Of a stretch of DNA of 12,520 nt, positions 1 through 3,000 are shown piece by piece. The first letter of the stretch is position 1. Each line of letters opens with the position of its first letter. Source of the stretch: a plasmid; sequence record NZ_CP037809.1; one strand, written 5' to 3'. Position numbers: made by a program.

Positions 1-3000
1 ATCTTATCATATGCACCAGCTATTTTATATTCGACTATTGCTTGTTGCACATTCGCAGAGTTGGGGAATATAAAGAGTGCTTTTATATCCAGCTCTTTTA
101 ATGTATTTATAATTGAGTATGTTTTTCCACTTCCTGTAGGAGCTACCATTAATACGTTCTTACCTTCTGTAGCATGTTTAATTGACTCTCTAATACCTTT
201 TAGATTTTCACTTATGTATTTATCTATATTAATTATCGAATCAGCTTTATAACTTGAATAGTTTTGTTTTTCTAGCATGGATTTTATTTTAATATTGTTA
301 TCTAAGTAATACTTTCTTTTGTCCTTATCAGTCATACACTCAAATTCAAAAGCTAACTCAATATCATTGTTTTTAAAAGCTTCTTGTTTCTTTTCTTCTA
401 TGAAGCTATTTATATCTTTTTTCTTTATGTAAATGTTTTTAATAGTATTATTTGTTTTTTTAATATTTGTCTTACTCTTGTTAATTGGTAATGAGATATT
501 ATATTTATTGGCTAGGAATAAAATAGCTTCTATAGGTCTTTCAAAGCGTTCATATGTGCGACATAATTCAATTATATCAGCACCAACAACACAATTATGG
601 CTATAGCATGTATATATTCTTTTGTTTAAATCGAATTGGAAGTTTTTATCCTTACCACCATGAATTGGGCAAGGAACATTCCTTTTTTGAGTTGTATCGA
701 CTCCTATATCTCTTAAATATAGTTCATCTATATTGGCATTTTTTATTATATCAATTAATTGTTTTATATCTATTTTCATTTGTAAAAATCCCCCTTTTTT
801 AGTTAGGGGCTAATCAAGTTTTATCAAGCTATGTATTTACATTCTGCCGTAAATCTCGTATAATTAACATATAAAAGAATAAGGAAATATATATTTTATA
901 TGTTAATTAAGCCTAAGTGATTAGCTCCTAGTATTAACCCCTAGTGGCTAACTCCTAATCTTGATTAACCCTTAAATGGAAAGAATGAGTGGATGCCGTC
1001 AAACAAATACTCGTTCTTTTTCGTTTTTTTTGTTATTAGTATTATATCACTATTAAAGTTATAATTCATTGTTTAGAATTATTTTTCTGACGGTTTTAAT
1101 ATATATTTTTAATTTCTTTTCAAGCATAATTTTTTATTTAAGTCTATAAATTCAGCTAGGTCAAGCCCATCTAAAACCCCCATTCGGTATGCGTATTCTT
1201 TTTCAATTACACTGTTACCAAATACTTTTTCCTCAAAATCAATTAGCATTTTTTTATGTTCTTTTTCTTCCAATATTTCTAACAATCTGTTCATTATTCT
1301 TTCAGATTCTTTTTTGTCATTTAAATATATTTCGTTATTTTCTAGTAGTTTATCTTCTAAATTTACTCCGTATGTGTCAAATCCAATTCTTAATAAATCA
1401 TCTTTTAACATTACTTTTAACACTCCTTTTTATGCACACTTAAATCTTTTGCACCCCTAAATATGGTAATATATTCTATTTATTATTATGTAATTATTTA
1501 CTATGTATTGTCAAGCATATATATTGTTTTTGGTACATATTTCCGATACTATATAATAAAAAAGGTGGCGATTAAATTGTTGGATATACAAATAAATAAA
1601 TTATTGGAAAATCAAAATAAAACACGTTATTGGTTAGCAAAGCAAATTGGAATGACTCATCAAAACTTAACTAAACTAGCCAACAATAATACAAATTCTA
1701 TTAAATTTGATTCTTTAGAAAAAATTTGTATGGCTCTAAAATGTTCTCCTAACGAGCTGTTCGGTTGGGAGCAAGACAAATAAAAAAATATAAATCCTAA
1801 AGGGTTTATTTATAACTACTAGAAAACTACTTTAGTAGTTATTTTATTTTGGAGGTTTAAACATGGATAGATATACATTTGATAACTTACCTATCAAGGA
1901 GCAAATACAATATATTAATAACAAGCTCTTAGAGGGCAATACATTAACTAACACATGTAAAGATATTGGTATTGGTCGTACAACTATAAGAAATAGATTT
2001 AAACAACATGGATATGAATTTAATCCAACTAAGAAGCTATATATATCTATTATTGAGGTTGTCGAATTAGAAAGTAGTTCAAAAGTAGTTGCGGGCGACA
2101 CTAGCAATGACAATACTTTAGTTGATGCAACCAATATTGATTTTAATAACATTTTATCTAAATTCAATGATATGAATAATAAACTAAATGAAGTATATAG
2201 TTGGTACGAATCACAAAGTAGTAATAAAGTAGTTGGGGCTGATAAACTAAATATAGACGATTTTAAAGGCAATATAGTTGTTAGAAGCTATAAGGTCTAT
2301 GAGGATATTCAAAAAGAGTTTGTAGCCTTCTGTGAAGCTAATAAGAAGTACAGGGTACAAGATATTATCAGCCAAGCTCTTAGGGATTTTATGGATAAAT
2401 ATAAGTAGTTTTACTTACTTTCTGATATTCTAAAAACTTTTCAATGAAAATCTCATTTTTTGGCTTCCTGTGAAAAATATGTACTCCTTCCAGTCCTCTA
2501 TCTTTATTTACTTTATTAATCCGATAGGGGGCGTATTATATATATTTCTATCGAGCATATACTCATCAAAACATAGCATTAGTTTGATTATTATATTTCT
2601 ATTTATTTTAAGATTATATATACAATTTGCCCCTTAATACATTGCAATTACTAACTTCTTTAGTTTTGATATTAATATTTAAATCATTCCTTTTTAAAGG
2701 TGCTATAAGTGCTATATAGGCATTGCAACCTATATACTTTTTAGGGGTGCAGTTGCATATGCAAGCTCTTTATTTCCCAACACTTAACCAGTTATAAATA
2801 TTTATATCCTTTATTAGCCAAATATAGCATTTTAAACAACTCCGACTATCTTTAGTAGTAACATTTTACATAGCTTTATTAATGTATTTTTGCATCTGCA
2901 ACCATGTTTTTAAGTTGCAACACCCCACCCCCACACCTTACACAAAACAATACTTATCTCCGAAGCCATATACCTACCTCGGTTCACATATTTTTCTTCA

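Follow-up and report, generated by a model that had tools for sequence, protein, structure and literature searches.

A candidate small antisense RNA gene at the C-rich repeats upstream of rep in a pCD630-family plasmid of Clostridioides difficile

The DNA analysed here (record NZ_CP037809.1; hereafter the window) is a complete plasmid circle of 12,520 bp in which position 12520 joins position 1 inside a helicase gene ('rep'), and the element in question is a cluster of C-rich boxes at 803-975 in the intergenic region before that gene, which the original prediction had read as iteron-like, a candidate origin or Rep-binding site. The first 3 kb of the window are 100% identical to the Clostridioides difficile plasmid pCD-WTSI1 and share 89-94% identity with further pCD630-family plasmids; the window exceeds the pCD-WTSI1 record (11,777 bp) by 743 bp, though this first part matches exactly. 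On the minus strand, rep begins at an ATG (779-777), its 5' part occupying 1-779, and continues across the junction to 12520-10690; in its product of 869 amino acids (aa) an SF2 DEAD/ResIII helicase domain comes after a DnaG-type CHC2 zinc finger. Its Shine-Dalgarno sequence, GGGGGA (789-794, minus strand), lies 9 nt upstream of the ATG, at the near end of a 329-bp intergenic region that separates rep from ORF104 (an open reading frame, ORF, of 100 aa at 1109-1411, minus strand, belonging to no known family). ORF104 is always found upstream of the cassette described below, in the same orientation as rep, with which it is probably co-transcribed.

Two preprints (including bioRxiv 10.1101/2022.07.10.499461) describe a conserved module of this plasmid family, consisting of the helicase gene, three small ORFs and the intergenic regions, as a functional replicon in C. 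difficile. The helicase ORF by itself fails to replicate and the whole module replicates, and replicons of the pCD630 type and of the pJMR5-W type are compatible by experiment (10.1101/2022.07.10.499461); a replicon of the pCD-WTSI1 type is likewise compatible with pCD630. A functional replicon has been cloned, yet no copy-control element or incompatibility determinant is mapped in the two preprints, and neither of them maps an origin, iterons or an RNA; nor did we find any of these three described for pCD630-family plasmids in the literature. The 329-bp region before rep is the largest non-coding stretch of the module, and we aligned 21 distinct variants of it, taken from plasmid records and from contigs encoding ORF104 homologues; counts out of 21 refer to this set throughout.

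The C-rich boxes

Allowing at most one mismatch, the box motif ATTARCYCCTAR matches five times in the 12,520 bp against 0.77 expected, a number that 0 of 200 shuffles reached, and four of the five matches fall within 803-975 (803-814 on the minus strand; 920-931, 933-944 and 964-975 on the plus strand). With two mismatches allowed there is no window-wide enrichment (17 matches vs 10.5 expected; 7 of 200 shuffles reached 17), and the array in 803-975 is not called by Tandem Repeats Finder. Of the six copies originally counted at 803-975 four are good, while the copy at 947-958 (two mismatches) and the copy at 906-917 (three mismatches, read by eye) are degenerate. Successive direct copies, ~70-75% alike, begin at intervals of 14, 13, 14 and 17 bp. 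As B-DNA repeats every ~10.5 bp, this pitch of 13-17 bp is out of phase, and the helical phasing formerly read into a pitch of 13-14 bp has to be given up.

The direct boxes DR1-DR4 (906-917, 920-931, 933-944 and 947-958, plus strand) are variable or absent in relatives, and the stretch that holds them, 906-959, really consists of two 27-nt units that are 74% identical. DR5 (CTTGATTAACCCTTAA, 960-975, plus strand) is the sole direct box found in every variant. Across the family the number of direct boxes falls from five in this plasmid to one in pCD630, a stable plasmid, and its relatives. On the rep mRNA the inverted box, IR-L (803-818, minus strand), has the sequence CUUGAUUAGCCCCUAA and ends 8 nt before the GGGGGA ribosome-binding site, which an inverted copy abuts in the first description too; it is a candidate cis-acting anti-Shine-Dalgarno sequence and a candidate partner for the complement of DR5. 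IR-L and DR5 form 14 Watson-Crick pairs, one G.T pair and one mismatch out of 16, and the complementarity extends to 796-821/957-982 at 77%. The 16-bp imperfect inverted repeat of the original prediction is hence real, and its arms are correctly placed at 803-818 and 960-975.

A predicted RNA across the boxes and the rep leader

Opposite rep, and ahead of all five direct boxes, lies a plus-strand promoter of the sigma-A type (TTTACA-17-TATAAT, 836-864) that agrees with the consensus at 11 of 12 positions, with a predicted start near 871, and both of its hexamers are invariant in 21/21 variants. This promoter is absent from the first description of the region, as is the perfect 16-bp palindrome (861-876/894-909) that surrounds an AT-rich spacer and overlaps the -10 box; the family keeps only the outer 7-bp arms of this palindrome, around spacers of 10-33 nt. 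A second palindrome, ATTTAC-N8-GTAAAT (835-854), covers the -35 box, its arms being invariant in the 21 variants and its 8-nt spacer variable, and it could be an operator for a regulator of the module or a leader hairpin.

The predicted transcript would end at an intrinsic terminator (980-1031, plus strand) with a stem of 11 pairs (980-990/1009-1019), a conserved 18-nt loop containing GCCGTCAAAC and a T-tract, TTCGTTTTTTTT, that runs to 1031 and is found on the plus strand only. A simple terminator scan, limited to loops of 3-8 nt, missed this hairpin. No plus-strand coding sequence lies upstream or downstream of it, in agreement with the first description of a hairpin and T-tract that follow no gene. 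The stem is paired in 100% of cells in 21/21 variants, and three pairs are changed on both sides (one G-C to A-U and two A-U to G-C), with one further pair alternating between U.G and U-A; RNAalifold returns the stem as its consensus. Near-invariant in the loop is CCGTCA (996-1001), of which an inverted and invariant copy, TGACGG (1088-1093), lies 86 bp downstream. Long-range pairing between the two was considered and rejected, since three variants change a loop C to G and show no matching change. In several variants an exact 22-bp indel, a deletion of 1066-1087 corresponding to about two helical turns, falls between the two copies.

The predicted small RNA (871-1031, plus strand) measures ~161 nt here, where it spans the five direct boxes, and 83-161 nt in the family as a whole; the 161-nt form folds with -38.8 kcal/mol (z = -4.6). 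An Rfam scan of the whole window gave no match at E up to 1, including the ctRNA, RNAI, CopA and Inc families. The repeat region of the RNA would be closed by a helix, H2, whose 5' arm GTTAATTAAG (902-911, plus strand) pairs with 960-969, and the duplex energies of this helix, summed over 10 variant types, are -66.4 kcal/mol for the plus strand and -25.8 kcal/mol for the minus strand. Read by eye, the substitutions in H2 are U-A to U.G and A-U to G.U and, between L033 and L034, G-C to A-U. At the level of predicted pairing, H2 is strand-specific evidence for a plus-strand RNA. The folds pair the 5' half of DR5 with 902-911, and the C-rich 3' half of DR5 is single-stranded before the terminator in most variants folded and pairs with 880-884 in the fold of this window.

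Mean pairwise identity is 92% in the promoter block (819-870) and 86% in the terminator, and 45% with 41% gaps in the body between them, which is the pattern that a small-RNA gene would leave. Together with the invariant promoter, the compensatory terminator and the plus-specific helix, this hypervariable body makes a short plus-strand regulatory RNA ending at the hairpin the best supported element of the original prediction. Short reading frames in the region that might encode a leader peptide or a small toxin were rejected, as none has a ribosome-binding site or is conserved among the variants. A metagenome scan with the promoter-block pattern gave 7 matches, just one of them a true relative and identical to pJMR5-W; scans of genome contigs with the promoter-block and terminator patterns gave 0 matches, and in scans of viral contigs pCD630 itself was the sole match.

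From 1041 down to 790 we found no promoter-like site on the minus strand. The nearest candidate (1041-1069, minus strand) combines a weak -35 box with an extended -10 element, TGATATAAT (1049-1041), whose TGnTATAAT every variant retains, and would start the rep leader near 1034; the other is a TTGACA-18-CATAAT promoter upstream of ORF104 (1485-1514, minus strand). Because no nearer minus-strand promoter is present, the leader of the rep mRNA should include the complement of the entire small RNA, and it is on the same ground that we place the constitutive-type promoter at 836-864 inside the rep leader.

Within this putative leader IR-L and DR5 have changed together. In a register-fixed alignment 85.6% of the cells are paired and three pairs are changed on both sides; the covariation score was matched by 0 of 500 shuffles, and pairing drops to 19-48% in slid registers. 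The joint changes are TTAGCCCC with TTAACCC, TTGACTCC with TTGACTCC, and GATT to AATT on both arms in one lineage. It is the last direct box alone that tracks IR-L, the internal boxes being without covariation. A protein that bound both as DNA sites would leave the same covariation, so that IR-L and DR5 by themselves cannot separate an RNA helix from a pair of DNA sites.

The predicted folds of the leader suggest a switch. When the leader is free, its minimum-energy fold contains the helix between IR-L and the DR5 complement in 8/9 variants; of these 8 folds, 7 leave GGGGG unpaired, and that of L033 pairs it in part. Blocking the stretch that the small RNA would cover lets the C-run of IR-L pair with GGGGG, wholly or for the most part, in 9/9 variants. 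The corresponding run of five C on the plus strand is present in 21/21 variants. The small IR-L hairpin is followed by a U-run here (AUUUUU), which is absent in pCD630 (AAAUUC), and attenuation is for this reason less likely than occlusion of the ribosome-binding site.

From these elements, their conservation, the compensatory changes and the thermodynamic predictions we infer two overlapping RNAs, the 5' end of the rep mRNA and a regulatory outcome. In the reading that we favour, with a probability of about 55%, 836-1031 would be a small-RNA gene and the boxes functional segments both of its RNA and of the opposite-strand rep leader, so that the repeats would belong to a small antisense RNA gene throttling rep and not to an origin. 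Transcription of rep would begin beyond 1035, at the 1514-1485 or the 1069-1041 promoter, giving a leader complementary to the small RNA over its full length. As long as this leader is free, the DR5 complement (975-960) would pair with the inverted box (818-803) and the GGGGG site would be open; the plus-strand RNA, perfectly complementary to the leader, would bind it and remove the partner of IR-L; and the freed C-rich inverted box (CCCCU or CUCC) would then pair with GGGGG, occlude the ribosome-binding site and so lower rep translation. The C-rich segment before the terminator of the small RNA could also pair directly with the rep ribosome-binding site. As the small RNA would be made in proportion to the number of plasmid copies, the result would be negative copy-number control, and the hypervariable RNA body would set incompatibility specificity.

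There is circumstantial evidence for the last point. The flanking genes are ~94% identical and the intergenic region 75-80%; the compatible replicons of pCD630 and pJMR5-W differ in the RNA body; and pESS10701b and pESS10701d, which share one strain, differ in their boxes and in the stem and loop of the terminator. This divergence together with compatibility looks like that of an antisense incompatibility determinant. Plasmid records that hold the module twice are dimers with identical genes and are uninformative on compatibility.

The proposed mechanism is of a known kind, and the family is new and unannotated. In pMV158/pLS1 (copG - RNAII - repB) and in R1 (copB - CopA - repA) a countertranscript of the leader controls rep translation, copy number and incompatibility. 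The present locus is like these in that a small upstream gene and rep are co-directional, that the predicted short countertranscript lies in the intergenic or leader region, that this RNA has stem-loops and an intrinsic terminator, and that its action, here predicted, is on rep translation initiation, copy number and incompatibility. It differs from them in showing no sequence or Rfam similarity, in that ORF104 is neither a ribbon-helix-helix (RHH) protein nor CopB-like, in its helicase or primase-polymerase-like gene where they have an HUH or RepA initiator, and in its longer predicted RNA, which has repeated C-rich boxes. As in pT181 and pIP501/pAMbeta1, antisense binding would free a leader segment that is otherwise held by a segment upstream and allow an inhibitory hairpin just 5' of rep, a preemptor logic transferred here to translation; their hairpin is a transcription terminator acting by attenuation, whereas the pairing here is just 4-7 bp. 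Several C-rich boxes (CCCC or CUCC) complementary to a G-rich Shine-Dalgarno sequence are also seen in RsaE/RoxS and in RNAIII of Staphylococcus aureus, but those RNAs are chromosomal and trans-acting and show no homology to the predicted one, which is fully antisense to its target leader.

A number of points weigh against the antisense reading. By itself it needs no repeated boxes. Where the rep mRNA begins is a prediction, and the nearer of the candidate promoters has a poor -35 box. The alignment of IR-L and DR5 chose the best complementary segment and is thereby biased toward pairing, and the duplex of the two is equally stable on either strand (-177.9 vs -172.8 kcal/mol). The anti-Shine-Dalgarno pairing is short, at 4-7 bp, and any C-rich tract would pair with GGGGG. 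The compensatory changes in the terminator all come from one lineage of 3 sequences, and the promoter block is conserved in its entirety, beyond the hexamers, which indicates that other constraints also act there. Finally, the published C. difficile 630 transcriptome paper makes no mention of the plasmid, and no RNA on pCD630 is described in the searchable literature.

The same cassette before unrelated replication genes, and competing readings

In six variants (L011, L012, L029, L033, L034 and L039) a protein of 402-410 aa replaces the helicase behind the same cassette, which is conserved up to the ribosome-binding site, the swap occurring exactly there. The two proteins are unrelated (BLASTP E above 2). 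The 402-410 aa protein, encoded for example at L020:4406-5614, L029:2047-3255 and L034:2104-3306, matches phrog_9432, a 'replication protein' (E = 2e-29), shows weaker matches to primases, has a C-terminal helix-turn-helix (HTH), and as a whole is 87% conserved between two of its plasmids; its RefSeq name, 'DNA-binding response regulator', looks like a misannotation. By eye, primase-like DxD and SGRG motifs can also be seen in it. The type of box is independent of the type of gene that follows, TTGACTCC occurring with both, and it is equally independent of whether the neighbouring regulator is of the HTH or the RHH kind. The regulator divergent from ORF104 in the window (1565-1783) is an HTH_26 protein of the Cro/C1 type; a 49-aa RHH protein is encoded at the same position in pCD630 (L002:3928-4077), and some variants carry both. 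Because the same cassette and the same box types precede an unrelated replication gene, the boxes are not helicase-specific iterons, and a control cassette for whichever gene follows would fit the sequences better.

A bolder version of the antisense reading, which we offer tentatively and regard as unlikely on balance, would have the cassette be a portable, self-contained RNA module (small RNA, leader switch and anti-Shine-Dalgarno box) that has recombined at the ribosome-binding site onto unrelated replication enzymes, the repeated boxes make the RNA a multivalent blocker of ribosome-binding sites, with changes in box number and sequence giving rise to new incompatibility groups, and the small product of another gene, ORF181 (below), be the true initiator of this widespread type of clostridial replicon, with iterons in its own gene.

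The first of the competing readings, that of an iteron-type origin, would have the direct boxes bind an initiator, the 861-909 palindrome unwind and the inverted box serve as an autoregulatory operator. The cluster of motifs is real, an AT-rich palindrome adjoins the boxes, the inverted and the last direct box co-vary as the sites of one protein would, and the size of this non-coding stretch and the failure of the helicase ORF alone, when the module with this region replicates, also speak for it. Classical iterons, such as those of pPS10, R6K, F and P1, are 17-22 bp long, near-identical within a plasmid, in phase (~22 bp) and specific for their Rep. The present region resembles such theta origins in having direct repeats and an inverted copy near the start of a replication gene, with an AT-rich neighbour, but its boxes are 12-16 bp long, degenerate, out of helical phase and common to unrelated proteins, their number falls to a single direct box in pCD630 and its relatives, and the internal boxes show no covariation with the inverted copy. 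Box types are shared between two unrelated replication proteins and between HTH and RHH neighbours, so that neither the helicase nor these regulators can bind them specifically. DnaA boxes are absent near the intergenic region, better-phased repeats are found at ORF181, and an origin of this type leaves the invariant promoter, the plus-oriented terminator and the plus-specific helix unexplained. The GC-skew profile of this small plasmid has no clear switch. We consider it quite unlikely that the boxes are iterons, and the proposal that they bind the Rep N-terminal domain does not survive these comparisons. The origin itself could still lie somewhere in the 329-bp intergenic region, where the segment 1032-1108 could hold it.

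If instead IR-L and DR5 were a pair of DNA operators bound by a protein of the module (ORF104 or another) that loops the DNA or brackets the small-RNA gene and so regulates the divergent transcription, no leader switch would be required. Such a pair would explain that the two sites change together and that their duplex shows no strand preference in its stability; the conserved block from IR-L to the -10 box, including ATTTAC-N8-GTAAAT, suggests protein binding, and the module encodes several DNA-binding proteins. Yet the half-sites are 140 bp apart here and ~60 to 140 bp in the family, with no fixed phase, ORF104 has no recognisable DNA-binding domain, and an operator pair would leave unexplained why the boxes resemble anti-Shine-Dalgarno sequences and why IR-L adjoins the ribosome-binding site whichever of the two genes follows. 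This too seems rather improbable to us.

Highly unlikely, finally, is that the plus-strand RNA serves in another role, as a primer or origin transcript for the helicase or the primase-polymerase-like protein, a repeat-containing RNA antitoxin of type III or the mRNA of a tiny peptide: the conserved promoter and terminator, the repeats inside the RNA, a 26-codon reading frame (976-1056) that spans the terminator and the replication enzymes encoded downstream would agree with it, but none of the short reading frames is conserved or preceded by a ribosome-binding site, the sequence marks no primer-processing site, and a ToxIN-like toxin-antitoxin system was rejected because the plus strand has no toxin gene after the terminator and the repeat number is not conserved, falling to one.

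ORF181 and the plasmid family

Repeats that would make better candidates for iterons or operators than the boxes at 803-975 lie elsewhere in the window. The 9-mer AAAGTAGTT has four exact copies, all within 1825-2234. Inside ORF181 (1863-2408, 181 aa, phrog_2727) it forms two tandem pairs at a pitch of 11 bp (2071-2090 and 2215-2234, within blocks 2063-2094 and 2207-2238), and inverted and direct copies lie just upstream of the ORF181 start (1814-1844). A homologue in Paraclostridium sordellii has the same layout with another 9-mer, GTATTACAA, of which inverted copies lie upstream at a pitch of 11 bp; where ORF181 has its SS-KVV repeats, GTATTACAA codes at the equivalent positions for a repeated YYK peptide. 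This points to a DNA-binding role for ORF181, with cognate sites within its gene and ahead of it, and ORF181 may be the real initiator. RepA_N plasmids have their origin inside rep, a layout that ORF181 resembles. The AlphaFold model of ORF181 is confident for the N-terminal 62 residues only, which we read as a winged helix-turn-helix, and a Foldseek search of the PDB with this model gave no match better than E ~3. By eye, a C-terminal strand-helix-helix segment is RHH-like.

Among clostridial plasmid records, 110 carry a homologue of ORF181, with C. botulinum, C. tetani, C. estertheticum, Paraclostridium and Terrisporobacter represented, and some of these are plasmids of 5.6-10 kb with no other annotated Rep candidate, the PLSDB gene tables being incomplete. 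The remainder of the window encodes a tyrosine recombinase, a serine recombinase, a BlaI-family regulator and a sigma-70-family/DUF4367 pair.

For a specialist the surprise is modest, as a mechanism of this kind is textbook. If true, an antisense RNA before rep would account for the failure of the helicase gene alone to replicate, would explain how closely related members of the family coexist, and would offer a means of adjusting copy number in new C. difficile shuttle vectors. The search for the origin is at the same time redirected to the repeats of ORF181, which bears on many clostridial plasmids without a recognised Rep gene, including some of C. botulinum, C. tetani and P. sordellii.

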